Numbered from the stretch's first letter, positions 12,681-50,195 are shown. The stretch: 51,838 nucleotides of DNA from a bacterium (GCA_029557815.1 JAKQHX010000024.1:1-51838); one strand, 5' to 3'. Notes: a model not told the origin generated them from the letters alone. Translations and numbers: made by a program.

Positions 12681-15600
12681 ATGAAGCAGGGGCTTCGGGT
12701 GCATATATTTTCGGAGTTATCAAATCTCGTGCAAACAGACAAAAATATGAACTATAAGTTTCCATTGGTGCATTGGTACGCCTTTGTATTGCTCGCCACG
12801 TTGTTGCTCGCGGCTGTCGTTGTGCAAAACGGTTTTACGGCAAGCGCATTTAGCGGTAGTGGCGAAGGTACGACCAATGCGCCATATCTCATTAGTACAT
12901 GTGAACATCTCCAAGAGATTGCGTTGGATAAGGACGCAAACTATATATTGACTCAGGATATAGATTGCTCGAATACCACTTCCTGGAATGACGGTGCCGG
13001 CTTTGCGCCTATACACAACTTCATCGGATCCCTAGATGGCAGAAACCACACCATAACAGGTCTCTATATCAATCGACCGAGCGACTACGCAGTGGGACTA
13101 TTCGGATTTGCAGACGGTGCAATAATTAAAAATATACGGTTCGCAAACAGTCTGGCCACAACCGGACAGGTAGCTATTACCGGTAGGCAGAATGTGGGTG
13201 CTGTAGCCGGCGAATTACGATACAATGCTGTACTCTCCAACATTCATAGTGAGCTCTCCGTACAATCTTCGCCTGCCGGGACGTCAGGTAGTCTTACGGG
13301 AGGACTGGTCGGCATTAGCAGAGGTAATATAAGCCGGAGCTCAAGTAGCGGGACGGTTATTGCAAATGTACCCGATTCGGGAGGCGTTTATGCAACCGCA
13401 GGCGGATTGGTCGGCTACACGGATACCTGGGAAGGGGGCGTGGGACATGTACAAGACAGTTATGCCACTGGAACGGTGCGGCTCGCAAACACAGAAACGA
13501 CATATCCCGGGACTGCTAATTGTGGGGGGCTTATAGGATCCATCAGCTATCCAGCAACCGTACAACGCTCTTATTCAAGTGGGGATGTTAACTGTCCTGC
13601 GAATGATGGCAGTGCAGGTGGCTTTATCGGTATACTTATCACAAGCGGTACTACAGAAGTACAGGTGGAAAACAACTTTGCCACCGGCTCTGTTACCGGT
13701 CCGTGGGGCGGACGCGGTTTCATTGGCTGGACTGACTCGGATACAACCGACATATCGAGCAACTACTACGATGCCACGCAAACTGGTCAAACAACGTGTG
13801 TTGGGGAACAGGAGTCAGGATGTAACGCCGTTAACACAGACGGCTCAGACCAGGACTACTTCAAAAACCCAGATAACTTCCCATTCCCCAATTGGGATCA
13901 GGGAAGTGTATGGACAATCGGGCCAGACATGCCCGTTTTCAAGGAAGTCCAAATAAGCCCCGATCCTCCAACTAACCTGAACGCCATACGTGAAACAGAT
14001 ATAACGCTTAATTGGGAAGCGCCGATTCCGCTTGAGGGCAGAAGCAATAACATCAACGATTATAAAATAGAGTATAAGTTACCCACCGACACTGCGTGGA
14101 CGGTATACGATGATGGTGTGTCTGCGCTCACATCCGCAACGGTGAGCGGAATTGACGATGAAAGTACTTATATCTTCCGTATCCAAGCCGTGAATGATAT
14201 AGGCGCAGGGCTTTACTCGGCGTCTTTGCAGGTTTCACCGGACGCCCCTACTCAGGTGGTGGGGCTGACCGGAGAAGCCAACGCAAGGTCAGCGAGCTTG
14301 TCATGGGAGGCGACAGAGAGAACGGCAAGCTACAAAACCCAATACAAAGCAAGTTCAGACTCGGAATGGTCTGAAGGTATCAGTCTGGGTGAAGCGAGTG
14401 ATACAAGCAGAGCTATATATGGGCTAAATCCCGGTGTTGCTTATGAGTTCCGGGTGGCAGCAGTCAATGGGGGCGGTCAAGGACCGTGGTCTGAAGTGCT
14501 TGAACTAGCAACCACACAGCAACAGTCGTACACAATTGCGACATGCCAAGAGCTACAAGACATACAGAACGATCCATCAGGAATCTATACCCTTGCGAAC
14601 GACATCAATTGTTCGGATACGGTGAACTGGAATAGCGGCAAAGGCTTCTTGCCTATAGATGTTTTCATCGGAACGCTTAAGGGTAATGGCCATACAATCG
14701 ACAGCATATACATGAATACTCAGATAATCGGCTCACCGCAGGATACTTTTCATGGTGTAGGGCTTTTTGGCGTAGTGATGGATGCGAATATTACAAATGT
14801 TCGGTTACAAAATACTACTCTGATAGCAAGCTTTGCACTCGATGAAACTGTTGACGCAGACCAAGACGGTATTCCAGATGACGTACAATTGCCGACCAGT
14901 CCAGAGGAAATCCAGCAGTTGCTCGCGGGCGGCCAGGAAGAAATATTAGCAAGGCTGGGTAGTATCGCAGGCGTGGTGGGCAACTTTGGAAAAGTTGGCG
15001 CCGGCACTATGGCAGGGCTGGTTTTGGGTGGAACATACCAAGATATCACAAGCAATAACGCTGCGGTGATTGGTGGCGAAGCTGGCGGTATATTCGGAAT
15101 CGTCACACCATTTTCACTCCAGGCCCAGTTAGGAGGCGCCTCAGCACCGTTTACTGAAAGTGCTCCAATTACTATGTCCAGGCTATCATCTAGCGGCGCG
15201 GTTAACGGTGTGGTTTCTGGCGGGTTAATCGGTTTGATACTATCTGGCATATCCAATGACATCAATGTTCCACAGGTAAAAGTCCAAGATAGCAGCTCGA
15301 CTGCAACGGTTGACGGGAACGTTTCTGGCGGCTTGGCTGGTGTTGCTGTTTCAATCATGGAAATTTTGTCTCTGGTACAAACTCAAAATCCAGCAGAAAT
15401 ACCTGAAAAAGTAAGTTCAGCACTTTCTACCTATGATATAGAAATCAAAGACTCATCGGCGAAAGGCAATGTAAGTACATGCAATACGATCACGCAGGTG
15501 CCTATCGGAAGCTTGGGTGGGGTGCTTGGCGCGGGCGTTGGAGTGCAGCTTAAAGGGACCAAAGCCAGCGGTAGCGTAACAGCCTGTGCGAGCAATGCTG

Positions 15601-18600
15601 ACGAGATAGGAGTGTACGGCGGTGCGCTGGGCGGCCTGGCTGGCAGTTTGCTTGCCAGCCGGATAGATGACAGCCATGCCAGCGGGCGTGTAGGTGGTGT
15701 CCAGCCCTTGACTGGCCCTCGTCCAGATGAGAGGCTCAGGATTTTTGCGGGCGCAAGCGGTGGGTTGACTGGCATATTCATCTCTACCGGCGATCAGAAT
15801 AACAGGCCGGTGATTAGCAGCAGCTCTTCTACTGGACCGGTTAGAAATGACGGCGGCAACGGTTTGTTCGCCTTTAATGGAGGATTCTCTGGCATATACA
15901 TAGGAAGCGGAACTATCAAAGATTCGCATTCCAAGAGCGTGGTAGAAAATAAGTTGCCTCAAGACCACTACTTTGGCGCCAGTATCAGCGGAGGACTTCT
16001 CGGTTTATCAGTGGGTATTGATGTGAATCCGATTCTTAGTATGGTGTTTGGTAAAGGGCTGATTCCGTCACGGGGAATCGTGGTGAATAACTCCTACGCT
16101 ACCGGTGACGTCAAGACTACCAACAGTAGTGGCGGCGTCTTCGCGTCTATATCAGGCGGCATGGGCGGTATGATACTGGGCCACGCGAGCATAATTAACT
16201 CGCACGCTACCGGTAATGTATCATCGAACATGTCTGATGGCTTGCACATAAACGTGGAGAACCCTTTCCAGACCCAAGGAAACTCACTTGCGATAAGCGG
16301 TGGCTTACTGGGTTTTGCAGCTGGCATAGACCAGAATCAGATACTAACTACAGTAGCCGGCGCCGAGCCTAAAGACGGAGACGGTATTTTGATTAACAAT
16401 GTGTATGCTGCTGGCAACGTTAAGGGCACCATAGGAGGTGGCTTGATCGGCTATGCAGAGTTACGAACAAGGATTAATAAAACATATGCCGAAGGCAAAG
16501 TGCGTGGCACAATTGTCGGTGGACTCGTGGGTTCAAGTGGTGCAGGCGCAACGGCTGGACTAGCAGGAGCGAGTGCGGTGCTAAGTAGTATCACTGACCC
16601 GGACGGTATACCTGCAATGGTTATGCCGTTAATCCAGAAGGGGGCCGAGATGGTCTCGCCTTTGGTTATTACTAATACGTATACGACTGGTGACATAGCA
16701 GCTGTGCCGTTAAGTGTTAAGGTGACGCAGGGAAACTCTCCAGGCCCGGTTGCGCCATTTGAGCTCCCAACCATGGCTGGTGGGGTAGTGGGGCTTTACG
16801 CCTCTCCTGCGGGCAAGGTAGAGGATTCGTATGCAAGTGGCAAAATAACAGTTGCTAACGATACAACCCTAGAAGCTGCTTTGCCAGAACAGGTAAAAAT
16901 TCCCCGCATATCGAACATGGTCGGCGGTATCTTTGGAGTAGCAGTAGCCATGCCGCAGCCTGACATGGCCCAGATACTCGCTGGAGCAATTGATAGAGAT
17001 AATCCTCCGCCCCTTGAGGCTTACTTCAAAACCCCGATGATTGTGAAAGATGTTTTTGCAGTGAGCGAGCTGCGCGTTCCGGACAAGACACTGGTCGGCG
17101 GTGTTGCCGGCTTGTTTGGCTCGCCACTCAGCGCTGCTTTTCAGGATTCGGTTCCGGCAAATAAATTCTACGACATAGACAATATATACTTTGATGAGTC
17201 GCAGATTCGTGTGAGCGGTTGTAATGGTCCCCGGAAGCCCGAGATGTTCTTTAATGAGTTATTTGAAGGACTTGAGGTGCCGGACGAAGCAGTGGAGGCT
17301 GGCACGCTACCCCCACTACCGGAAGACTCACCCGTAAATATTGTGCTGCCGTTCTTCAAGGTTGCAAATTGTAACAGCGTAAACAAGGCTAATACCACGC
17401 CTGCGTACTTCAAGAATAATAAAGTGAATCCACCCCTGGATAAATGGGACTTTGACAAAACCTGGGTCGTAAAAGAGGAAGATTATCCAAAGTTTGTTGC
17501 CGGCGCTCATACCTCTACGCCCGTTGATCCGCCCACTCCTACCGTTCCTACAACTCCTTCAATCCCTACGGGTACAACAACGACAGGCACACGGCGTCTG
17601 CCGCCTAGTGGTTTTGGGGCCGGATCGCCAATCGATCTCGATACTACCGAGACCGCAGGCAGACTTGATAACTTCATGACGAATAGATTTGGTAATGTGT
17701 CTGAAAAACTCGCCAAGCTAATCCCTTATATTCTCCTGCTATTGCTCGTAGCGCTCGCTTTGTTGTATACCTACCTGTCCATCCTCGAAGACAATAGACG
17801 GAAGCGCTTGCAAGCACTGGTTACGCGGTTCAAGGAATCGCAGATTGCACGATCCGTATATCTAAAGCTTACCTCGCACTTCATAAACACCCCTATTACA
17901 GAAATGCGAACAGCGGTTGAGTTGTTGACCGGCCTGAAGCAGCTGGATGGCCAGGTTGCTGGCGTCGTTCAAGAGCAGCTAAAGCTACTTGGCGGAAACG
18001 CACAAATGCTCCTAAGTGCCGCCCAGGAGTTGAGTCAGGCACAGGAATCAAGTCTGCAAAAAGTCCAGGCCATCAAGATACCTTCCCTTGTCAGGAAGCC
18101 GGCAGTATGGGTGCCCGTAGCGGTGACCGTGACGCTCGCACTATTTGCAAATATACTATTCGTACAAATAGATAAATACGAACCAAGTGTCATAAATTTT
18201 GCTACGCAGGTCGCCTTGGCGGTAGTAGGGGTTGTGGCGCTGGTCATATCCTGTTACTTCCTTGAACAATCAAAACACATAACGGCAACTGTTCGTGCTC
18301 AGCATGATTTGGAAAAATCAGTTTTTGACCAGCAAAACTACTTAATTCATTCGATTGCGTCTAGTCTCGATAGGGAAACGCAAGAATTAAAGAAATATGA
18401 AAAAGAAATTGCAGGTAAGCCGAAAGGTACTATATTCACCGATGGGCTTAAGGATCTGGAGTATCTAACCAGTCGTTTTGATAAGCTATCGCAGCTATCC
18501 AAGCACGTACCTGGTCTTAGCTGGTCGACGAACGTTAGTCTCGTAGCGCAAAAGGCACTTGCTGATGTAGCGCACTATGCCGAACAGGCCCGAATTACCA

Positions 18601-18992
18601 TCAACTCATCAATTGACAGTACCGTTCATGCAAATGTTGATACCGATTCGCTCTATCATATACTCTACTCATCGTTAGAGAATGCGGTGAAATACAGTAA
18701 GCCTGAGTCACAGGTAGCTTTGGTTGTAGGCGCGCAACGAGAATATGCCATTATCGAAGTACAAGACCACGGCAAAGGAATCTCCAAGGAGAACATCGTA
18801 CGGTTGTTCCAGCCCTTTTCACGAATCAGTCCGGTTGAGCAGTTTGACGATCAAGGAATAGGTCTGGATCTGTACTTTTCTAAGGTAATTGTCGAAAACT
18901 ACGGCGGATCAATCGTCCTTGTTTCACAAGAAGGTCAAGGGACCACGGCGAAAATAAGGCTGCCCCAGAGTCGCAAGCCGGCTAAAAAGTAA
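12681..18992 (+). CDS. giant surface protein (two GLUG-motif modules, two FN3 domains, long GG[LIF][ILV]G repeat region) fused to a C-terminal membrane-embedded histidine kinase
   Basis: Uninterrupted 2103-aa ORF; an alternative start at ATG 12747 would give the signal peptide MNYKFPLVHWYAFVLLATLLLAAVVV.
- GLUG-type modules lie at about 12870-13945 and from 14520.
- The FN3 pair lies at about 13950-14515.
- A Pro/Thr linker lies at about 17510-17590.
- TM helices lie at about 17718-17787, 18103-18165 and 18199-18263.
- HATPase_c boxes: N (SLENAVKYS), G1 (VQDHGKGIS), F (FQPFSR), G2 (GIGLDLYFSKVIVENYGGSI). Confidence 0.9.
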   Translation: MKQGLRVHIFSELSNLVQTDKNMNYKFPLVHWYAFVLLATLLLAAVVVQNGFTASAFSGSGEGTTNAPYLISTCEHLQEIALDKDANYILTQDIDCSNTTSWNDGAGFAPIHNFIGSLDGRNHTITGLYINRPSDYAVGLFGFADGAIIKNIRFANSLATTGQVAITGRQNVGAVAGELRYNAVLSNIHSELSVQSSPAGTSGSLTGGLVGISRGNISRSSSSGTVIANVPDSGGVYATAGGLVGYTDTWEGGVGHVQDSYATGTVRLANTETTYPGTANCGGLIGSISYPATVQRSYSSGDVNCPANDGSAGGFIGILITSGTTEVQVENNFATGSVTGPWGGRGFIGWTDSDTTDISSNYYDATQTGQTTCVGEQESGCNAVNTDGSDQDYFKNPDNFPFPNWDQGSVWTIGPDMPVFKEVQISPDPPTNLNAIRETDITLNWEAPIPLEGRSNNINDYKIEYKLPTDTAWTVYDDGVSALTSATVSGIDDESTYIFRIQAVNDIGAGLYSASLQVSPDAPTQVVGLTGEANARSASLSWEATERTASYKTQYKASSDSEWSEGISLGEASDTSRAIYGLNPGVAYEFRVAAVNGGGQGPWSEVLELATTQQQSYTIATCQELQDIQNDPSGIYTLANDINCSDTVNWNSGKGFLPIDVFIGTLKGNGHTIDSIYMNTQIIGSPQDTFHGVGLFGVVMDANITNVRLQNTTLIASFALDETVDADQDGIPDDVQLPTSPEEIQQLLAGGQEEILARLGSIAGVVGNFGKVGAGTMAGLVLGGTYQDITSNNAAVIGGEAGGIFGIVTPFSLQAQLGGASAPFTESAPITMSRLSSSGAVNGVVSGGLIGLILSGISNDINVPQVKVQDSSSTATVDGNVSGGLAGVAVSIMEILSLVQTQNPAEIPEKVSSALSTYDIEIKDSSAKGNVSTCNTITQVPIGSLGGVLGAGVGVQLKGTKASGSVTACASNADEIGVYGGALGGLAGSLLASRIDDSHASGRVGGVQPLTGPRPDERLRIFAGASGGLTGIFISTGDQNNRPVISSSSSTGPVRNDGGNGLFAFNGGFSGIYIGSGTIKDSHSKSVVENKLPQDHYFGASISGGLLGLSVGIDVNPILSMVFGKGLIPSRGIVVNNSYATGDVKTTNSSGGVFASISGGMGGMILGHASIINSHATGNVSSNMSDGLHINVENPFQTQGNSLAISGGLLGFAAGIDQNQILTTVAGAEPKDGDGILINNVYAAGNVKGTIGGGLIGYAELRTRINKTYAEGKVRGTIVGGLVGSSGAGATAGLAGASAVLSSITDPDGIPAMVMPLIQKGAEMVSPLVITNTYTTGDIAAVPLSVKVTQGNSPGPVAPFELPTMAGGVVGLYASPAGKVEDSYASGKITVANDTTLEAALPEQVKIPRISNMVGGIFGVAVAMPQPDMAQILAGAIDRDNPPPLEAYFKTPMIVKDVFAVSELRVPDKTLVGGVAGLFGSPLSAAFQDSVPANKFYDIDNIYFDESQIRVSGCNGPRKPEMFFNELFEGLEVPDEAVEAGTLPPLPEDSPVNIVLPFFKVANCNSVNKANTTPAYFKNNKVNPPLDKWDFDKTWVVKEEDYPKFVAGAHTSTPVDPPTPTVPTTPSIPTGTTTTGTRRLPPSGFGAGSPIDLDTTETAGRLDNFMTNRFGNVSEKLAKLIPYILLLLLVALALLYTYLSILEDNRRKRLQALVTRFKESQIARSVYLKLTSHFINTPITEMRTAVELLTGLKQLDGQVAGVVQEQLKLLGGNAQMLLSAAQELSQAQESSLQKVQAIKIPSLVRKPAVWVPVAVTVTLALFANILFVQIDKYEPSVINFATQVALAVVGVVALVISCYFLEQSKHITATVRAQHDLEKSVFDQQNYLIHSIASSLDRETQELKKYEKEIAGKPKGTIFTDGLKDLEYLTSRFDKLSQLSKHVPGLSWSTNVSLVAQKALADVAHYAEQARITINSSIDSTVHANVDTDSLYHILYSSLENAVKYSKPESQVALVVGAQREYAIIEVQDHGKGISKENIVRLFQPFSRISPVEQFDDQGIGLDLYFSKVIVENYGGSIVLVSQEGQGTTAKIRLPQSRKPAKK

Positions 18993-39306: not shown

Positions 39307-39861
39307 ATGCGAAAGTTTACATTCCATCAGGTCAGTCCAGGTACGCTGGTCACAGCTGGAATGAGACGAGTGCAGTTCCCCCGGTCGAAATACAAGCAGT
39401 TCGGATATGGTGCGGCCATCGTGCTCGCTGTATTAGGTGCGCCCTTTGCCGTTCAGGCGATGTCGGGGAATCTAGTATCCAAGGATGCGCCGCCCCAAGG
39501 CGAGACAACTTCCGGACAGCATGTAAGCCAACCTGGCTCAGAAGCAAAATCGAATGCGAGTGAAGGGGCAAAATCCATGGACAGTGACATCAAAGTAGAG
39601 TCAAAAATTGAATCTTCTGGAGCGGAACGTTCCGATGTCGATGTAACAGTAAATGGCCAGAACGTGCCAGTACCGGAAAATGGCACAGTCCACAAACGCC
39701 TCTCCGGCAATAATGGCGAAACGACAGTAGACGTGCGGGTAGACAATGGTTCAAGCTCACAAAGCTCATCGTCATCCACAGTAATTATTGAGCAGCATTC
39801 ATATAGTTCAGGTGACACAACGAACGAAGGAGGTACCGGACGGCATCCAGCGCGCAGGTGA
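39307..39861 (+). CDS. hypothetical secreted Ser-rich protein
   Basis: 184 aa. GGGAGGG lies upstream. Signal/anchor segment YGAAIVLAVLGAPFAVQA and a Ser/Gly/Asn-rich mature part. Confidence 0.55.
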   Translation: MRKFTFHQVSPGTLVTAGMRRVQFPRSKYKQFGYGAAIVLAVLGAPFAVQAMSGNLVSKDAPPQGETTSGQHVSQPGSEAKSNASEGAKSMDSDIKVESKIESSGAERSDVDVTVNGQNVPVPENGTVHKRLSGNNGETTVDVRVDNGSSSQSSSSSTVIIEQHSYSSGDTTNEGGTGRHPARR

Positions 39862-39952
39862 GAGCTTTGTCAATCGACTTTGCGGTCGGCCATTGTTGCT
39901 ACCACGAAGCCGGGTGATAAAGCCCGAAATAATAACTAATAAGGAGGGAAGC

Positions 39953-40534
39953 ATGAAAAAAATAGTAAGAATCGCGGCTTTGTCAGTGATGGCTCTCAGT
40001 CTCACCGGCGGGGTAGCTGCGGCTCATTCGGGCTCTATCGGTACTACCGGACCTGACTCGGTAAACAAGATTGAGCACAAGAATCGCAGCACACGCAATG
40101 TAGACAACAACAACGCATTGTTTGTCGTGAATTACAACCCGCAAGAAGCACGAACAGGCCGCGCACGCGTTAGTCACAATACGACTGGCGGTGATGCAAC
40201 AAGCGGCGACGCTACCAATGACAGTTTGCTGCGGGCACGTGTGACTGTCAATAACAGCGGATCGAACAGTGCGGCGCTGGGGAGCGGCAGCAGCGGCAAC
40301 AACTCAGGCACCATTAGCAAAACCGGACCAGACTCGTACAACACGATCAAGTTTGAAAACAGCAGTTACGTTAGGGTAACGAACAACAATCTTGTCGGTG
40401 TCGTAAACGTCAACGAGCAGAAAGCCAAATCTGGTAGCGCTCGAGTAAGCGGTAATACGACTGGCGGTGATGCAACAAGCGGCGACGCTTCTAACATCAG
40501 CACCAACGAAACAACTATATCAATCACCAACTAG
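39953..40534 (+). CDS. small secreted protein with two TGPDS...NTTGGDATSGDA repeat units
   Basis: 193 aa. AAGGAGG lies 5 nt upstream. Signal peptide MKKIVRIAALSVMALSLTGGVAAA. Two repeat units of about 75 aa share an identical 36-nt core (40178-40213 and 40455-40490). Confidence 0.75.
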   Translation: MKKIVRIAALSVMALSLTGGVAAAHSGSIGTTGPDSVNKIEHKNRSTRNVDNNNALFVVNYNPQEARTGRARVSHNTTGGDATSGDATNDSLLRARVTVNNSGSNSAALGSGSSGNNSGTISKTGPDSYNTIKFENSSYVRVTNNNLVGVVNVNEQKAKSGSARVSGNTTGGDATSGDASNISTNETTISITN

Positions 40535-40569
40535 TCAGGACATAGCTTGGTAATTCTATAGTGACACGA

Positions 40570-40609
40570 GCAGGGAAAGTCCGGGTCACAAGGCCACGGA
40601 CCTCCCTGC
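40570..40609 (+). other. intercistronic stem-loop
   Basis: GCAGGGA-AA-GTCCG-loop-CGGAC-C-TCCCTGC (7 + 5 bp), with no U-tract, between the short and long repeat-protein genes. Confidence 0.5.
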
Positions 40610-40646
40610 CCCATATCCAGATTATCACGAGAGGAGACGGTGGCGT

Positions 40647-42875
40647 ATGTTCGGCAAGACTTCGAGAAACGATACAAGTAATATGTATGAAACGCATGTA
40701 ATTATCCAATTGAGCACTTTGGAGCGCGCGCACCGCAGCCGTTCGACCTACCGATACGTCCCTGCTCCGCGATCAGTGCGTATTGCTTCTATTGTTACTG
40801 GAATACAGCTTGTTGCCGGCCGCAGCTTCGCCGGGTGTATGATTGTCCTGATGGCGCTGTTCTATCCGGCTGGCGCATATGCTCAGGAGGCACCAGCGGC
40901 AAATACCCCGACGCCGGCGTCAACCGCCGAAGTACAGACTCCGCCTTCAGTCTCACCAGCGGCTGCCGAAACACCCTCCCCATCGTCGGTGCCACCTGCG
41001 TCTGCCGCTCCAGTACAGACTCCGCCTTCGGCACCAAAAAAGTCGAAGACCGGTCCCAAAAAACCATCCCCAGCACCGGCTGCCCCAAAAACCGGTCCTC
41101 AGAAGCCAAATGGAGCAGATGCAAACAAATACACCTACAACAAAGCCACCGGCAAGTGGGAAAATGGCCAGTATGCCTGGGATCCGGTGACTGGCCAGTC
41201 AAAGCCGCTAAACGCCCCAGACTACAGCTACAACCCAGAAACCAATGCCTGGGATACGACCGATTGGCGGTACGACCAGGCAACAGGCAAATACGTGCCG
41301 AACACGGTGGCGATTGCGCCGCAGTCTGACGGTAACGAGATAGCGCTTGAGGACGACTCCACTCAGTTCTTTTCCTTATATAACAATGCTGCTATCAGTA
41401 ATACGGTGAACTCACATGCTCAGAGCGGCGACGCATGGGTAACGGGCAACACGCTGGCCGGAAACGCACTTACCGGCGATGCTCTGACCATCGCCAATAT
41501 ATTTAATATGATCAACTCCTCGGCTGGCTTCCAAGGCGGAAGTGAAATTGCGACCTTTAGCTCTGATATCTATGGTAACGTTTACGGCGACCTGTACGTA
41601 GATCCTGCGGCGCTCACTGCCGTTCAGCCAGCCGCTGGTATCGGTGCTGATAATGCTAACGTCGAGGTTAACGCGGAGCTGACCCACAAAGTAGAGAACA
41701 ATATCAGCCTTAATGTCCAGAGCGGTGACGCAAACGTCACACACAACACGACCGCAGGCAACGCCACGAGCGGTTCGGCAAATGCCGTCGCAAACCTAGT
41801 CAATATGCTCAATTCTGCTATTAGTAGCGGTAGTTCGTTCCTCGGTGTGCTCAACATTCACGGTAGCCTCAACGGTGACATTCTACTGCCTCCCGGACTG
41901 CTCAATGCCCTGCTGGCGAGCAATACCACTAACGGGCAAAGCGGTGACACAAGTAACACGTCAATGAACGTCAATCTCTCTGATACACAGTCAATCACAA
42001 ATAATATCAAGGCCAATGCTGCATCTGGAAATGCCAATGTTGCACAGAACACCCAGGCTGGAAATGCAACAACCGGCAATAGTCAGACCAACGTTACCAT
42101 ACTTAACCTAACTGGTCGGAATGTCGTAGCGGCGAATTCGCTGCTAGTGTTCGTTAATGTGCTCGGTCAGTGGGTCGGTGTTATCATGGACGCGCCGGCA
42201 GGCAGTACGTCGGCAGCACTTGGTAGCGGTGTAATTGAAAACAGTGGCAGCAATCTGGAGGCCGATTACGATGTACACACAAAGAGCGAAATCGTAAACA
42301 ACATCGATGTCACTGCCCAGAGCGGCGACGCCAATGTGACCGGCAACACAGTAGCCGGCAGTGCCACGACAGGTGATGCTACGGCGAGCGTCAATATAGC
42401 AAACATCACCAATAGCAACTTTAGTCTGTCGGGCTGGTTTGGAATTTTGTTCATCAATGTCTTTGGTAGCTGGAATGGCAGCTTTGGCGTCGATACGGCA
42501 GCGGGTAATAAACCAAGAGTACAAAAACCAAGTGGAAGCACGACACGGAGCGACACAACACCGAAAGCATTCCGCTTCGTTCCAGCTAGTGGAAACGGTG
42601 ATAGCGGCAGCACTATGACGCTGGCATCTGTAGATATGAGCAATGCGGCAAACGCGAAGGCTGTATCGAAAGCCGTCAAAGCTGCCCAACAGAAGATGGG
42701 TACCACTCCTCACAAGTCTTCAGAGCCGTCCTCACAACTTGCAGCGCCATCTACGGATGGCTCGATCAGCGGTCCTGACTACACACTTCCGATGCTTGGT
42801 TTTGCCTTCGGTGGTGTCTTGCTTGGCGGTGAACAGATAATCAGCCGCCGGCAGCGCCGCAAACTGCCCGCCTAG
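40647..42875 (+). CDS. large secreted/anchored repeat protein (Pro-rich linker, four QSGDA-NT-AG-A-TGDA modules, C-terminal hydrophobic anchor)
   Basis: 742 aa with GAGGAG 10 nt upstream.
- Signal-anchor CMIVLMALFYPAGAYA.
- VQTPPS-type Pro-rich region.
- Y-x-Y-N..TG.W repeats.
- Four modules of about 90 aa, for example AQSGDAWVTGNTLAGNALTGDALTIANIFNMINS and VQSGDANVTHNTTAGNATSGSANAVANLVNMLNS.
- C-terminus LPMLGFAFGGVLLGG..RRQRRKLPA. Confidence 0.85.
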   Translation: MFGKTSRNDTSNMYETHVIIQLSTLERAHRSRSTYRYVPAPRSVRIASIVTGIQLVAGRSFAGCMIVLMALFYPAGAYAQEAPAANTPTPASTAEVQTPPSVSPAAAETPSPSSVPPASAAPVQTPPSAPKKSKTGPKKPSPAPAAPKTGPQKPNGADANKYTYNKATGKWENGQYAWDPVTGQSKPLNAPDYSYNPETNAWDTTDWRYDQATGKYVPNTVAIAPQSDGNEIALEDDSTQFFSLYNNAAISNTVNSHAQSGDAWVTGNTLAGNALTGDALTIANIFNMINSSAGFQGGSEIATFSSDIYGNVYGDLYVDPAALTAVQPAAGIGADNANVEVNAELTHKVENNISLNVQSGDANVTHNTTAGNATSGSANAVANLVNMLNSAISSGSSFLGVLNIHGSLNGDILLPPGLLNALLASNTTNGQSGDTSNTSMNVNLSDTQSITNNIKANAASGNANVAQNTQAGNATTGNSQTNVTILNLTGRNVVAANSLLVFVNVLGQWVGVIMDAPAGSTSAALGSGVIENSGSNLEADYDVHTKSEIVNNIDVTAQSGDANVTGNTVAGSATTGDATASVNIANITNSNFSLSGWFGILFINVFGSWNGSFGVDTAAGNKPRVQKPSGSTTRSDTTPKAFRFVPASGNGDSGSTMTLASVDMSNAANAKAVSKAVKAAQQKMGTTPHKSSEPSSQLAAPSTDGSISGPDYTLPMLGFAFGGVLLGGEQIISRRQRRKLPA

Positions 42876-43567: not shown

Positions 43568-43643
43568 TGGTGGGGGTGACAGGACTTGAACCTGTGACCA
43601 ATCGGTTATGAGCCGACTGCTCTAACCACTGAGCTACACCCCC
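43568..43643 (-). tRNA. tRNA with CAU anticodon (elongator Met or Ile2/lysidine type; resembles ileX-type)
   Basis: Cloverleaf read by hand: GGGGGTG-TA-GCTC-AGTGGTTA-GAGC-A-GTCGG-CTCATAA-CCGAT-TGGTC-ACAGG-TTCAAGT-CCTGT-CACCCCC-A-CCA. CCA is encoded and 1-72 is a G-C pair. Confidence 0.9.
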
Positions 43644-44292: not shown

Positions 44293-45717
44293 CTAGACTT
44301 TCTTTATCGCGCCCATGAATAGCGGTTCACCTGATTCTACGTCACGTATTATGAGGAAAAATGGTTTGTTGACTTCCATGTAGTATCGGTCAGTCGATGG
44401 GCCAACGGATTCAGTTGCTATACCTATACTGGTTACTGCAGCAGCCTCAGTACCTTCCTCGTTTACCTCGACGAAAGTTTTGTGCTTGACCTCACTGATT
44501 TTAAGACCGCGACCAATGCCGCTAAAGTCAGCGCTGTCAGAAAATGCTGTTTTTGCACCCAAGAGCTGTAATGGTTTCACGAGGCTCGTATCATATTCTA
44601 GTTTGAACCGAGGTAGGAGTAGCGTACCCTCTTTTTGCTTTAGTTTTCCTAAAGTTGCATTCAGCTTTTCATTGTCCAGTTCCTTGAGGTATGCATCTAG
44701 GTTATCTGGCAGTACGACATTCATGGCATATTTGCCCTCTTTGCCGTAGGGTAGCTCGATAGCCTGCAGGCCATCCTCTTCGTAGTACTTCAAATCTTCA
44801 GACTCTAGTGTCATGAGCGGGGTATCCTTCTTGCTACCGTCAGCGGCTGTGAACTCTCGATTCTTGGTATCTGCTTCGTCGAATTGATATTTCCAAGTGC
44901 CTTTAAAATACACGGCATTAATTAGCATCATGACGTAATCGTTGGGGATGGGGTTTGGGGCTATGGCTTGAATTTTGTTGTTGGTCTTTTGTTTAACCCA
45001 GTCATCTATTTTTTCTGCTGATCCGGTTGCCTGCAGGTCTAGGTTTTGTACCTCTGCCATATAGCTGTCTTTTAGCAACGCCACATAGGATGGTTCTACT
45101 GAAAATTTATCATCAATCCATGCGGAGTTAGCGATATTGGTCATGACATCGGAGCTGCTTTGCGTTAATCGCTGCTGTATGGCAAGGTTCTTGGTGTTCA
45201 ATTCCTCGTCGTCAATGTCACCTAATTGCAGGGCGCTTCGAATTTCGTTTTTTGTCTGGTTTTTTGCCCCTGCTTGTACCATAGTCAAAGCGGTAGATAT
45301 ACTGGTTGGAGAAATGAAAACGCTGTCATTGCTGTTACTGAGTTGTTGCAGCAGCTTGATTCCCATTTCGGTACGAGCTTTGGAGAGGTCATTAGTGGAT
45401 ATGTTGGGGGTGGTCTGCGGCTCCAATACTTGGTTGTGGGTAGGCGACTGCGGGGTCGGCGTTTCCGGTCTGGTCAATAAATACGCAGCCGCACCTGTTC
45501 CGCTCAAAATTACGAGCAGTAATAGTATTAGGACAGCGCGCCTTTTGCCTGATTTCTTTGGCTTGAGGGGTTCGTTTGATCTAATATTGGCTTCTTGAGG
45601 TGTGGCAGGGGTAAATTGGGGCATCAAACTCGGTTCGGTAGACGTTGTTGGTAGTGGTTCACTGCCGGAACTTTCGTTTTGATTATTGTTTTGGTCGGTT
45701 GACTTAAGTGGTGGCAT
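44293..45717 (-). CDS. serpin-family protease inhibitor with N-terminal membrane anchor
   Basis: 474 aa. Serpin motifs: FISPTSISTALTMVQAGAKNQT, NAVYFKGTWKYQFD, hinge/RCL EEGTEAAAVTSIGIATESV, VNKPFFLIIRD. These are preceded by a low-complexity N-terminus and TM helix AVLILLLLVILSGTGAAAYLL. GAGGA lies 8 nt upstream. Confidence 0.9.
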   Translation of the reverse strand: MPPLKSTDQNNNQNESSGSEPLPTTSTEPSLMPQFTPATPQEANIRSNEPLKPKKSGKRRAVLILLLLVILSGTGAAAYLLTRPETPTPQSPTHNQVLEPQTTPNISTNDLSKARTEMGIKLLQQLSNSNDSVFISPTSISTALTMVQAGAKNQTKNEIRSALQLGDIDDEELNTKNLAIQQRLTQSSSDVMTNIANSAWIDDKFSVEPSYVALLKDSYMAEVQNLDLQATGSAEKIDDWVKQKTNNKIQAIAPNPIPNDYVMMLINAVYFKGTWKYQFDEADTKNREFTAADGSKKDTPLMTLESEDLKYYEEDGLQAIELPYGKEGKYAMNVVLPDNLDAYLKELDNEKLNATLGKLKQKEGTLLLPRFKLEYDTSLVKPLQLLGAKTAFSDSADFSGIGRGLKISEVKHKTFVEVNEEGTEAAAVTSIGIATESVGPSTDRYYMEVNKPFFLIIRDVESGEPLFMGAIKKV

Positions 45718-46776: not shown

Positions 46777-48693
46777 TCAGTTGCTGCTTTCGTGAGATCG
46801 CGTAGATTTTTTAGCCCAGAGAACAGCGCAGATACAAAGTATAATGAATGCTCCCATCAACAGATATAGAGTATTGAGCCCAGTTTTTACCAAAAGGGCT
46901 GCCTTCTCTTCTGTGGCTGGGGCACCTGGTATATCTTCTGATGACCCCTCGCTACCTTCGGTGCTCAAGGAGGCTAGGCCTGCTGGGTCAGTAATGTTAC
47001 CGTCTACTTCACCATCGGTATCAAGTTCGCCGCCGTCAGTCACGTCGTAGGTCACGATTGTTACAATATTGCCACTAATTTCCGTTTGTTCGATGACAGC
47101 CTCTTGAATAGTGGAATATGTATTTGTGTTCGGGTCGTATTTGCGCAGTATCAAATCAGAGCTTGGCACATTGTAGTAATACTGTTTAATGGTTGATGTA
47201 AACCCGGGTGTTCCGCAAGCCAGAGTGAAGTCCATAAGGCCATTAATATAACTATAGTCTTCGTCACGTACGGGAATGGAAGTTTCACTTACTGATGATG
47301 CTGAATTTACCGTACAGGCATCGTCTGTTACGAGCACGACAGTTTTTTCCGTTACTGAACTTGTGTAGCTGTAGACATTAGGTTGGTCTGAGTCCTCGGT
47401 GCCGTCCTGATTAAGGTCGCTACCAAGTGCGGGGTTGGTAATAGTAACAGACGATGACCCTACATTGTTAGTGAGTGAACCGCTTAGACCGGAAAAGTTT
47501 ACCCCTGAGATCGCATAGGTACCCGCCGATGAAGAGACTACAGGAATGGATGCAACACAGTTTGCACCGCCGCTTACAGAACTTCCTGCGAGAACTACAG
47601 AATTGCTTCCTGCTGTTGCCGTGAGAGATCCTCCACATGTATTGGATAAGCCCTCGGATCCTATTACGAGTCCTGAAGGTAGTGAAACTGTATAGCCAAG
47701 TCCGCCCACTGTCGTTAGTTCGGTATTCACAATTGAGACATTAAATAACACAGGATCGTTCACATTGGTCGTATTCGAGGCAAACGATGCATTGAGATTT
47801 GTTCCTTGCTGGGTTGCGAATTGTTGAAAACTTGCGGTTTGTGTTCCTGGTGTCGAACCGAGATTCCATTGCATCATCAAGCCAGCATCGTGAATTGACT
47901 CAGTGACTGCAAAACCGATATCCCCACCATTACGCACGCTAGCGTATGGGGCACTATAATGCTGAGAAGTAGCACCATCAAAAGCTTTCGATCCCGAAAC
48001 TTCACGCAATCCAAACATGATATGAGAAGAGGTATTCAAAGAGATAACTGAGCGAACCGGGCTTGTGAGCATAATACCGTATCCTGAATCTGACGAACCA
48101 GGTGCAGTATCTCCACCAAGATAGAATTTGACTGGCTCAGTATTGCCTTCTGGAATCACGAAGCTGTAGCTATCTGTTACGTAATCATTAGGGTATACAT
48201 AGCTGACTGTGCGGGTAACGGTGTAGACCTGCTCATTGTGGTTGATGCTATAACGTAATGTGGCGTTTGAATTTCCGGTGGCGGACGTTCGTTCTCCGAC
48301 CGATGTTGCGCCAGAGCTGGAAAGTAATTCGATAGAGTCCCAGGTCTGACTACTTGTAGCAGGCCCTGACTGACCGTACAATGTTCCGCCTATGTTTAAC
48401 ATAGGCCCTCCAGCGGAGCAGCAATACTGATACGTATTGCGATACACCACTGCGTCTGCGCCGGCGTATGCGTTGTTGGGGTTACCCGAGGCGCTGTTTG
48501 AATTTATCGTGAATCGTATACCGTCAGAACCGTTAGCCTGCAGGCCGCCACCCGGATTTAATGTTACTTGGCCCACCGGTCCCACTTGCAGCGCTAGTGA
48601 TTTCGGTAGCCTTATGCCACTTACTACCATAGCAACGAAGACAAATACGGCAACAAAGAGACCGTTCCACAAATATTTGAAGCTGACTCTCAT
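46777..48693 (-). CDS. large surface protein with LPXTG-like (LVKTG) C-terminal sorting signal
   Basis: Start taken at MRVSFKYLWNGLFVAVFVFVAMV (48693; the track start is 48729). The body is beta-rich and Ser/Thr/Gly/Asn-rich. The C-terminus carries TDGGELDTDGEVDGNITDPAGLA, then LVKTG, a hydrophobic helix and KKSTRSHESSN. Confidence 0.8.
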   Translation of the reverse strand: MRVSFKYLWNGLFVAVFVFVAMVVSGIRLPKSLALQVGPVGQVTLNPGGGLQANGSDGIRFTINSNSASGNPNNAYAGADAVVYRNTYQYCCSAGGPMLNIGGTLYGQSGPATSSQTWDSIELLSSSGATSVGERTSATGNSNATLRYSINHNEQVYTVTRTVSYVYPNDYVTDSYSFVIPEGNTEPVKFYLGGDTAPGSSDSGYGIMLTSPVRSVISLNTSSHIMFGLREVSGSKAFDGATSQHYSAPYASVRNGGDIGFAVTESIHDAGLMMQWNLGSTPGTQTASFQQFATQQGTNLNASFASNTTNVNDPVLFNVSIVNTELTTVGGLGYTVSLPSGLVIGSEGLSNTCGGSLTATAGSNSVVLAGSSVSGGANCVASIPVVSSSAGTYAISGVNFSGLSGSLTNNVGSSSVTITNPALGSDLNQDGTEDSDQPNVYSYTSSVTEKTVVLVTDDACTVNSASSVSETSIPVRDEDYSYINGLMDFTLACGTPGFTSTIKQYYYNVPSSDLILRKYDPNTNTYSTIQEAVIEQTEISGNIVTIVTYDVTDGGELDTDGEVDGNITDPAGLASLSTEGSEGSSEDIPGAPATEEKAALLVKTGLNTLYLLMGAFIILCICAVLWAKKSTRSHESSN

Positions 48694-48802
48694 GTACTCT
48701 TTATAATCCTTATTACAATAATATAGCATAAGAATTATGTAGTATGACTAAACGAGCATCACCTTTAGCTGTTGCAAGTTGGAGGGCCGTGTCGCTCCAT
48801 AG

Positions 48803-48841: not shown

Positions 48842-48916
48842 TGGTAGCGGGGGGAGGACTCGAACCTCCGACCTTGTGGTTATGAGCCACACGAGCTGCC
48901 ACTGCTCTACCCCGCG
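48842..48916 (-). tRNA. tRNA-Met(CAU), initiator-like
   Basis: CGCGGGG-TA-GAGC-AGTGGCA-GCTC-G-TGTGG-CTCATAA-CCACA-AGGTC-GGAGG-TTCGAGT-CCTCC-CCCCGCT-A-CCA. The C1/U72 mismatch and the CGCGGGG 5' end match bacterial tRNA-fMet. Only two of the usual three G-C pairs close the anticodon stem. Confidence 0.9.
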
Positions 48917-50118: not shown

Positions 50119-50195
50119 TGGTAGCGGCGACAAGACTTGAACTTGTGACCCCAGGCTTATGAGTCCTGTGCTCTAACCAGCTGAGCTACGCCGCC
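50119..50195 (-). tRNA. tRNA with CAU anticodon (resembles elongator tRNA-Met)
   Basis: GGCGGCG-TA-GCTC-AGCTGGTTA-GAGC-A-CAGGA-CTCATAA-GCCTG-GGGTC-ACAAG-TTCAAGT-CTTGT-CGCCGCT-A-CCA. G1-U72 wobble, an A31/G39 mismatch, and CCA encoded. Confidence 0.9.

Follow-up and report, generated by a model that had tools for sequence, protein, structure and literature searches.

Three adjacent genes on the + strand, here called A, B and C, occupy positions 39307-42875 of a 51,838-nucleotide (nt) stretch of bacterial DNA (GCA_029557815.1 JAKQHX010000024.1:1-51838), the whole of which is referred to below as the window. The proteins encoded by B and C form an exported, Saccharibacteria-specific family that is built from one all-beta module; it matched none of the known families searched, and no account of it was found in the literature. 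The modules of these exported proteins are probably stacked beta-arches, and the pair follows the logic of an anchored minor paralogue (C) plus a secreted major stacked-repeat subunit (B), made from a new module. A full polymer model, with C as the membrane-anchored base and B as the uncapped major subunit of a cross-beta surface assembly, is proposed tentatively, at somewhat under an even chance. The original prediction, made from the DNA alone, had described three genes for exported Asn/Gly/Thr repeat proteins. The three + strand open reading frames (ORFs) were recovered at the predicted positions and export agreed with signal peptides conserved in B and C, but A was not a repeat protein.

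The B/C module family

Gene B (39953-40534; all cassette features described here are on the + strand) encoded 193 amino acids (aa), with a signal peptide of the typical Sec type at aa 1-24 (MKKIVRIAALSVMALSLTGGVAAA, followed by HS) and then two modules of ~75 aa each, 55% identical to one another. Module 1 (40031-40255, aa 27-101), matched by a hidden Markov model (HMM) at an independent E-value (i-E) of 2.9e-32, consisted of an I.TTGPDS.N loop, a long arm 1 (V.V.N.N.Q.A.SG.A.V), an NTTGG tip and an arm 2 (A.SGDA.N......V.V.N). A Gly/Ser/Asn-rich linker (SGSNSAALGSGSSGNNS; 40256-40306), variable and gap-rich in its alignment columns and a short helix or coil in the AlphaFold model, joined it to module 2 (40307-40531, aa 119-193; i-E 4.9e-32). 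A Shine-Dalgarno sequence, AAGGAGG, was read from the sequence at 39941-39947, 5 nt ahead of the ATG, and the earlier description of a short gene with a strong Shine-Dalgarno sequence and essentially two repeat copies was accurate.

Mature B (169 aa, 17.3 kDa) was hydrophilic (grand average of hydropathy, GRAVY, -0.77), with N+S+T+G making up 53% of its residues and with no Cys and no Trp. Of 270 homologues, 257 stopped exactly where module 2 stops and 256 had Asn as the final residue; 23 residues were invariant in B across the class in the alignment. Neither end of B carries a capping sequence. B is put forward as the major subunit. The isoelectric point (pI) of this B was 9.1, which is atypical (B family median 4.5); binding of a basic B to an acidic C was rejected on this ground. 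The ectodomain of C was acidic (family pI ~4.05).

The module HMM, built from B and searched against the six-frame ORFs of the window, matched the product of gene C (40647-42875; 742 aa) four times and no other ORF, and B and C are therefore paralogues. C is membrane-anchored; an alternative start is the ATG at 40683. All four C modules carried the motif SG[DN]A.V..NT, and AlphaFold gave their cores a high predicted local distance difference test score (pLDDT). The motif was SGDAWVTGNT at aa 260 in module 1 (41322-41651; i-E 7.9e-10; core pLDDT 96-97), SGDANVTHNT at aa 359 in module 2 (41652-41951; i-E 4.8e-8; 96-98), SGNANVAQNT at aa 460 in module 3 (41952-42257; i-E 2.3e-4; 93-96) and SGDANVTGNT at aa 559 in module 4 (42258-42506; i-E 3.5e-7; 95-98). 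Module 2 had an additional hydrophobic strand (SFLGVLNIHGSLNGDILLPP), and modules 3 and 4 carried the strands LLVFVNVLGQWVGVI and WFGILFINVFGSWNGSFG, respectively. The long protein with four related modules that had been predicted was thereby found.

Relatives were numerous and unnamed. Word-seeded searches returned 458 relatives of B, nearly all of 190-200 aa, and 640 of C (E<=1e-3 for both), and an exhaustive profile search with the module returned 2458 representative clusters at E<=1e-3, 1420 at <=1e-10 and 339 at <=1e-30, with 2, 3, 4 and up to 5 or 6 modules per protein. Cluster names of the relatives were 'hypothetical protein' only. Pfam and NCBIfam gave nothing above cutoff for A, B, C and 28 C homologues. 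PDB sequences gave nothing significant against the B- and C-family profiles (best matches picornavirus VP4 at E = 0.095 and an uncharacterised protein at E = 0.57 over the Trp-rich domain of C), and no description of the module family was found in the literature, motif strings included. The repeat had been called unassignable to a named family, and it remained so after the Pfam, NCBIfam, PDB-sequence and Foldseek searches.

A genome scan with one genome per species, based on an 8-sequence alignment and sampling taxonomic breadth only as far as a narrow peptide pattern reaches, yielded 79 loci, almost all in metagenome-assembled genomes of Saccharibacteria/Saccharimonadales. C lay immediately 3' of B in ~72 of 82 loci, in keeping with the predicted short and long pair sharing a repeat, and an A-like ORF (130-240 aa, with the architecture of A) lay immediately 5' of B in 76 of 82. 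Flanking genes varied between distant genomes, and A-B-C is therefore the conserved unit; no conserved partner gene other than A was found in the related loci. Neighbours in the window were of the housekeeping kind (ABC transporter, Dus, MauE-like protein, DivIC, serpin). No csgE/csgF/csgG-type secretion or assembly gene was present among the neighbours in the window or in the related loci, as had been expected from the sequence; no sortase was found among the neighbours checked in either, and no gene for a NOD-like receptor (NLR) lay near the cassette in either.

B paralogues with no C next to them were seen in some genomes (L060, L074, L078, L083), in a few of these as a second copy of B; pairs of paralogues, one with C and one without, were L022/L060, L074/L076 and L025/L078. 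A three-module variant (P0048, labelled Parcubacteria) adjoined genes for a YkuD L,D-transpeptidase and for LytR-CpsA-Psr wall attachment rather than C.

Covariation and predicted fold of the module

Mean-field direct coupling analysis (DCA) within the module (985 unique modules; effective number, Meff, 886) gave a ladder of pairs with i+j=101 (40A-61A, 38Q-63N, 36N-65N, 32V-69, 30V-71V, 45A-56A and 43G-59G). The pairs fell on every second residue and all on the conserved face, and the two arms are therefore antiparallel around the NTTGG tip. The TGPDS loop was coupled to the tip (8P-51T, 5T-52T). These couplings support a module in the form of a long beta-arch, or possibly a hairpin, with two arms of ~20 residues facing each other through the V/N/Q/A/G face.

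Between the two modules of B (270 full-length proteins), DCA was dominated by coupling of position i in module 1 with position i+87 in module 2. This signal was rejected as proof of stacking, because identical and same-charge residues dominated it, and charge-swap pairs were used instead. An unbiased scan of all 6080 inter-module column pairs of B for charge complementarity left three pairs that passed the thresholds, and the top two were exactly in register (chance of two in-register pairs topping the 6080, ~1.5e-4). Columns 73/160 held R-E 12 times, E-R 11 times, E-K 4 times and K-E 4 times, with zero same-charge pairs. At columns 69/156, an acidic residue stood opposite 68 of the 73 basic ones (Fisher p = 4e-33); same-charge pairs numbered 0 against 19 expected. 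Each charge state of the two pairs changed ~18-20 times on a neighbour-joining tree. The best of ~100,000 column pairs in C was likewise charge-swapping (C492-C591), at a separation of 99, which is the offset from module 3 to module 4. Charge-complementary pairs of this kind are inexplicable by gene conversion.

In arm 2, the salt-bridge columns were on the variable outer side, away from the side that meets arm 1. Such a placement fits a beta-arch stack, in which neighbouring rungs would share hydrogen bonds and the two arms would enclose the conserved face; a face-to-face packing of two hairpin sheets would fit it less well. The ordered stacking of regularly spaced ladders, which had been predicted, thus found its evidence in covariation, as in-register charge-swap pairs in both B and C, and successive modules appear to be piled up in the manner of beta-solenoid rungs.

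Structure models were all-beta for B and ordered over the modules of C. AlphaFold gave B (42-sequence alignment) a pLDDT of 57, with strands of up to 25 residues, and C (120 sequences) a mean pLDDT of 68, with the four module cores at 95-98 and strands of 21, 11 and 10 residues per module. Foldseek returned no match at E<=0.001 for the B and C models against the PDB, nor for C against BFVD, and the beta-solenoid or beta-helix match that had been expected did not appear. The top matches were insignificant, with template modelling (TM) scores <= 0.13: FapC for B (E = 0.09, TM 0.10) and SufBD for C (E = 3).

Concerted evolution left its own trace. Within a gene the two modules were 55% identical; identity was 46% when module 1 was compared with module 2 from a different gene, and 46% also between orthologous copies of module 1. 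Part of the i+87 signal is therefore due to concerted evolution. The 36 nt that encode NTTGGDATSGDA in the module 1 tip (40178-40213) recurred in the module 2 tip (40454-40489) with 36 of 36 nt and 12 of 12 codons equal, inside a 96-nt repeat that was 75% identical. Identical residues shared the same codon in 47% of cases within genes and 40% between genes (78 genes), and comparable tracts occurred in few other lineages (L028, L051, L074, L062). The identity had been taken to imply gene conversion or strong constraint. It is real, and with codon matching so low elsewhere it is an occasional lineage-specific intragenic conversion tract; family-wide constraint at the nucleotide level was rejected.

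Acidic residues also co-occurred in register, at B alignment columns 10, 24 and 45 and their +87 partners (B residues ~35, 49 and 70). Asp-Asp at the SGDA turn was observed in register 136 times against 91 expected. A tight stack would hardly be expected to contain such pairs, unless they bind cations or stem from gene conversion.

Architecture of the cassette

A GC-rich RNA hairpin (GCAGGGAAAGTCCGGGTCACAAGGCCACGGACCTCCCTGC; 40570-40609), without a U tract, lay 36 nt past the stop codon of B. Hairpins at this place were stronger than elsewhere when the best 60-nt hairpin <=130 nt past the stop codon was taken in 76-78 related loci. The mean was -26 kcal/mol after B (96% of loci <= -20), -16.4 after C (23% <= -20) and -16.0 after other long ORFs (20%), and the excess after B was highly significant (Mann-Whitney p = 3.7e-26). 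Stem sequences differed among loci and most hairpins had no U tract. By analogy with major-subunit genes in pilus operons, these differences suggest that the hairpin may serve as an attenuator or may stabilise the 3' end, raising the expression of B over that of C.

The N-terminal region of C (40647-40883) comprised, by alignment, an extension of ~45 aa, a hydrophobic helix and a signal-peptidase-like site between AYA and QE. The extension, described as cytoplasmic, carried the clade-conserved IQLSTLE; AlphaFold placed a helix at residues 31-60 of P0121. An extension of ~45-55 aa with [IV]QLS[ST]LE was seen in this C and its closest relatives (C residues 1-55, 40647-40810), and more distant C homologues had a plain short signal peptide instead. 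In this clade C might have a membrane anchor at each terminus; alternatively, its extension might act in the cytoplasm.

A low-complexity segment rich in Pro, Thr, Ser and Ala followed (40884-41126, aa 80-160; pLDDT <50). The predicted Pro-rich stalk was present in this sense, but it lay at the N-terminal end, distant from the membrane anchor, and is therefore not an anchor-side stalk. Next came a Trp/Tyr-rich beta-hairpin repeat domain (41127-41303, residues 161-219; pLDDT 83-92, eight short strands) with the pattern YTYN..TG.WEN..Y.WDP.TGQ...YSYNP.T..WDTT.W.YD..TGKYVPN, in which W and Y were invariant in the C-family alignments. This domain had no Pfam or PDB match, and it is possibly a glycan- or wall-binding module, or a cap. 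It resembled cell-wall- or glycan-binding hairpin repeats in style only.

Past the four modules, C continued with a low-complexity linker (42507-42782) of variable alignment columns and low pLDDT, with one predicted helix (655-672 in the AlphaFold model of P0121); its length is enough to span the cell wall. C ended in a transmembrane helix with a basic tail (TLPMLGFAFGGVLLGGEQIISRRQRRKLPA; 42783-42872; AlphaFold helix 701-726). The C-terminal pattern G...G..LLG.ER....R.RR was kept in the C-family alignments, the tail here being RRQRRK, and LPXTG or LAXTG was not conserved before the helix in those alignments. The predicted C-terminal anchor, a hydrophobic segment with the RRQRRK tail, was there, but as a transmembrane helix: the motif 'LPMLG' was not kept in an LPXTG-like form in homologues, and a sortase signal at the C-terminus of C was rejected.

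Gene A (39307-39861; 184 aa; GGGAGGG ahead of the ATG) had an N-terminal hydrophobic segment at aa ~33-52, a signal peptide or signal anchor. This was followed by a Ser/Gly/Glu-rich (also Ser/Thr-rich) linker, a small domain and a Ser-rich tail. The small domain was a conserved beta domain (DVDVTVNGQNVPVPENGTVHKRL...TTVDVRVDN) with the pattern 'V.VNGQ.v.VP.NG.V.K'. A was fast-evolving, with only 8 relatives by word-seeded protein search, and was detected by tblastn in ~40 loci; its sole Pfam match was Glucodextran_B, weak and below cutoff (22.5 bits). A would be a small membrane-tethered protein acting as an accessory factor.

Other features of the window were observed alongside the cassette. 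A 2103-aa ORF at 12681-18992 (+), with fibronectin type III domains and with HATPase_c at its C-terminus, resembles a giant sensor histidine kinase exposed at the surface, unusual for a ~1 Mb genome. The serpin (44293-45717, -; Pfam E = 8e-103) had an N-terminal extension of ~110 aa with a transmembrane segment, and for this reason is probably displayed on the cell surface. Near the cassette, a 650-aa protein with DUF7933 (46777-48729, -; E = 1e-11) was uncharacterised and probably surface-located. Three tRNA genes with a CAT anticodon lay within 7 kb (43568-43643, 48842-48916 and 50119-50195, all -) and are presumably the initiator, the elongator Met and a lysidine-modified Ile tRNA.

Proposed assembly, alternatives and significance

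The predicted likeness to curli and chaplins held for organisation, as a short and long paralogue pair with in-register repeats, and failed for homology. As in curli, where CsgA is the major subunit and CsgB the surface-attached nucleator, adjacent paralogues would serve as major and minor subunits (the nucleator role of C being deduced), polar N/Q/G/S/T repeats are conserved at every second position, strand-turn-strand units lie in register and the major subunit is uncapped. However, there was no sequence relationship: the Curlin_rpt repeat (PF07012; S-X5-Q-X-G-X-X-N-X-A-X3-Q) had no match at E<=1 in A, B or C or at E<=0.1 in 28 C homologues, and when E. coli CsgA was aligned to the B family by hhalign, the probability was 9%, over the signal peptide only. 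B and C also differ from curli in arms of ~20 rather than ~8 residues, in two rungs in B rather than the five of CsgA, in a monoderm host with no CsgEFG-type genes near, and in a C that is large, transmembrane-anchored and multidomain. Chaplins (short ChpD-H, long ChpA-C; PF03777) share the short secreted and long anchored paralogues, with 1-2 versus several domain copies, the monoderm host and the proposed logic of an anchored long form that organises a short-form polymer. The chaplin domain, however, has ~40 hydrophobic residues with two Cys, unlike the hydrophilic, Cys-free B; there was no Pfam match, and C has a transmembrane helix and basic tail rather than an LAXTG/LPXTG sortase signal.

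Other systems were alike in single respects. HET-s and bacterial amyloid signalling motifs have two repeats per subunit, a Gly/Ser-rich loop, in-register stacking and inter-rung salt bridges, but are ~21 residues long, cytosolic and NLR-paired, whereas the B/C modules are ~75 residues long and exported, with no NLR nearby. FapC of Pseudomonas, the top (insignificant) Foldseek match of B, has Asn/Gly/Ala-rich repeats, but Fap requires the FapF outer-membrane channel and FapB/D/E, none of which is present here. Sortase-assembled pili did not match: B ends at its module with no C-terminal sorting signal, and the neighbours checked included no sortase.

The polymer model would run as follows. C, inferred to be the base or nucleator, would be a pre-formed four-rung stack, stabilised by its end domains and its additional hydrophobic strands; the C-terminal helix would fix it in the cytoplasmic membrane, and the flexible linker would carry it through the wall. 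B would be two bare rungs with open edges, Sec-exported and unstable alone; its excess would come from the hairpin, which would either limit read-through into C or protect the B transcript. Stacking in register on the open edge of C and on other B molecules, B would then build up a fibre or sheath at the surface, with C as its anchor. A polymer of the form ...r1-r2-r1-r2... would turn the column-69 R/E pair into an alternating charge ladder. The pLDDT of 57 for B against 95-98 for the C cores suggests, at the level of the models, the instability that two rungs alone might be expected to have. A stronger claim, that B and C make a phylum-specific functional amyloid-like polymer in which C is the template seeding B, as an outer surface structure of Saccharibacteria cells, is doubtful. 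The alternatives below are partly compatible with these readings and are not mutually exclusive in all respects.

Several points weigh against the polymer model and the stacking beneath it. Most in-register couplings of B were between identical or same-charge residues, same-charge pairs being enriched 1.70-fold; such a bias suggests concerted evolution, and without bound ions a tight stack would not favour it. The covariation tests were only partly corrected for phylogeny, and the choice between a beta-arch and a hydrogen-bonded hairpin would turn on a single feature, the face that bears the salt bridges. The further Foldseek matches, to CsgA and ice-binding beta-helices, were insignificant (TM ~0.1). 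The hairpin lacks a U tract; its influence on expression is putative, as is polymerisation of B. Strong class-wide conservation of B, together with housekeeping neighbours, would also fit a non-polymeric core envelope protein.

On the unlikely side, but best placed among the alternatives, is the view that B and C are stable, non-polymerising, beta-solenoid-like surface proteins, for example adhesins by which epibionts hold the host cell, or wall spacers or binders. The in-register contacts require intramolecular stacking only, variants of 3 to 6 modules could be self-sufficient monomers, the Trp-rich hairpin domain of C could bind glycans, and some B paralogues stand without an adjacent C. It does not sit well with a B that is uncapped at either end and whose model by itself is of low confidence, against the very high confidence that this module reaches in C, nor with the tight B-C adjacency and the B-specific hairpin, which suggest a stoichiometric structural pair. 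Adhesins, moreover, usually diverge fast, whereas B keeps its 23 invariant residues across the class.

A two-component S-layer, with B as the lattice and C as the membrane stalk, is quite unlikely. It would explain the regular outer layer reported for cells of candidate phyla radiation (CPR) bacteria, and an S-layer-like envelope has reportedly been seen on ultra-small groundwater bacteria (Luef et al. 2015). Archaeal SlaA/SlaB likewise set a secreted lattice protein beside the gene of a C-terminally membrane-anchored partner; a small secreted protein, whose abundance would follow from the hairpin, next to an anchored one matches this, and the cassette is conserved in ~1 Mb genomes. The CPR envelope itself has been described as unresolved (PMC5220378). 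SlaA/SlaB, however, have no sequence or fold relationship to B and C and are not paralogues, as B and C are. Mature B, at 17 kDa, is far below the usual size of an S-layer protein (and far smaller than SlaA) and is conserved well above what is typical of such proteins; no SLH, CWB2 or other known anchoring domain was found in Pfam or NCBIfam, and in-register rung stacking grows in one dimension, not two.

Very improbable is a role as binders of metal ions (Ca2+, for example) that would sit, as in RTX beta-rolls, between the SG[DN]A / GG[DN]A turns of the stack, for cation-dependent wall stabilisation or biomineral or ice interaction instead of polymer formation: covariation pairs Gly/Asp-rich turns (43G-59G, 45A-56A), the in-register Asp-Asp excess at SGDA points the same way and both families are acidic, but Asp is not fixed at these positions, where D, N, S, G and H alternate, no RTX/HemolysinCabind or ice-binding Pfam match was obtained, and the Foldseek matches to ice-binding proteins were insignificant.

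The CPR/Patescibacteria envelope is among the least understood bacterial surfaces. The cells live attached to host bacteria, and the surface is therefore where their biology happens. Offered here are a large unannotated family, a hypothesis for its stacked beta-arch architecture and a hairpin regulatory element. If B polymerises, its fibres would be functional cross-beta structures of a new class, with a fold of their own and a minimal, Sec-only assembly route, in a monoderm whose genome is minimal. Without polymerisation, the two proteins would still be among the best-conserved surface proteins of the class and candidates for host contact. B and C are good candidates for an unknown cell-surface building block of Saccharibacteria.

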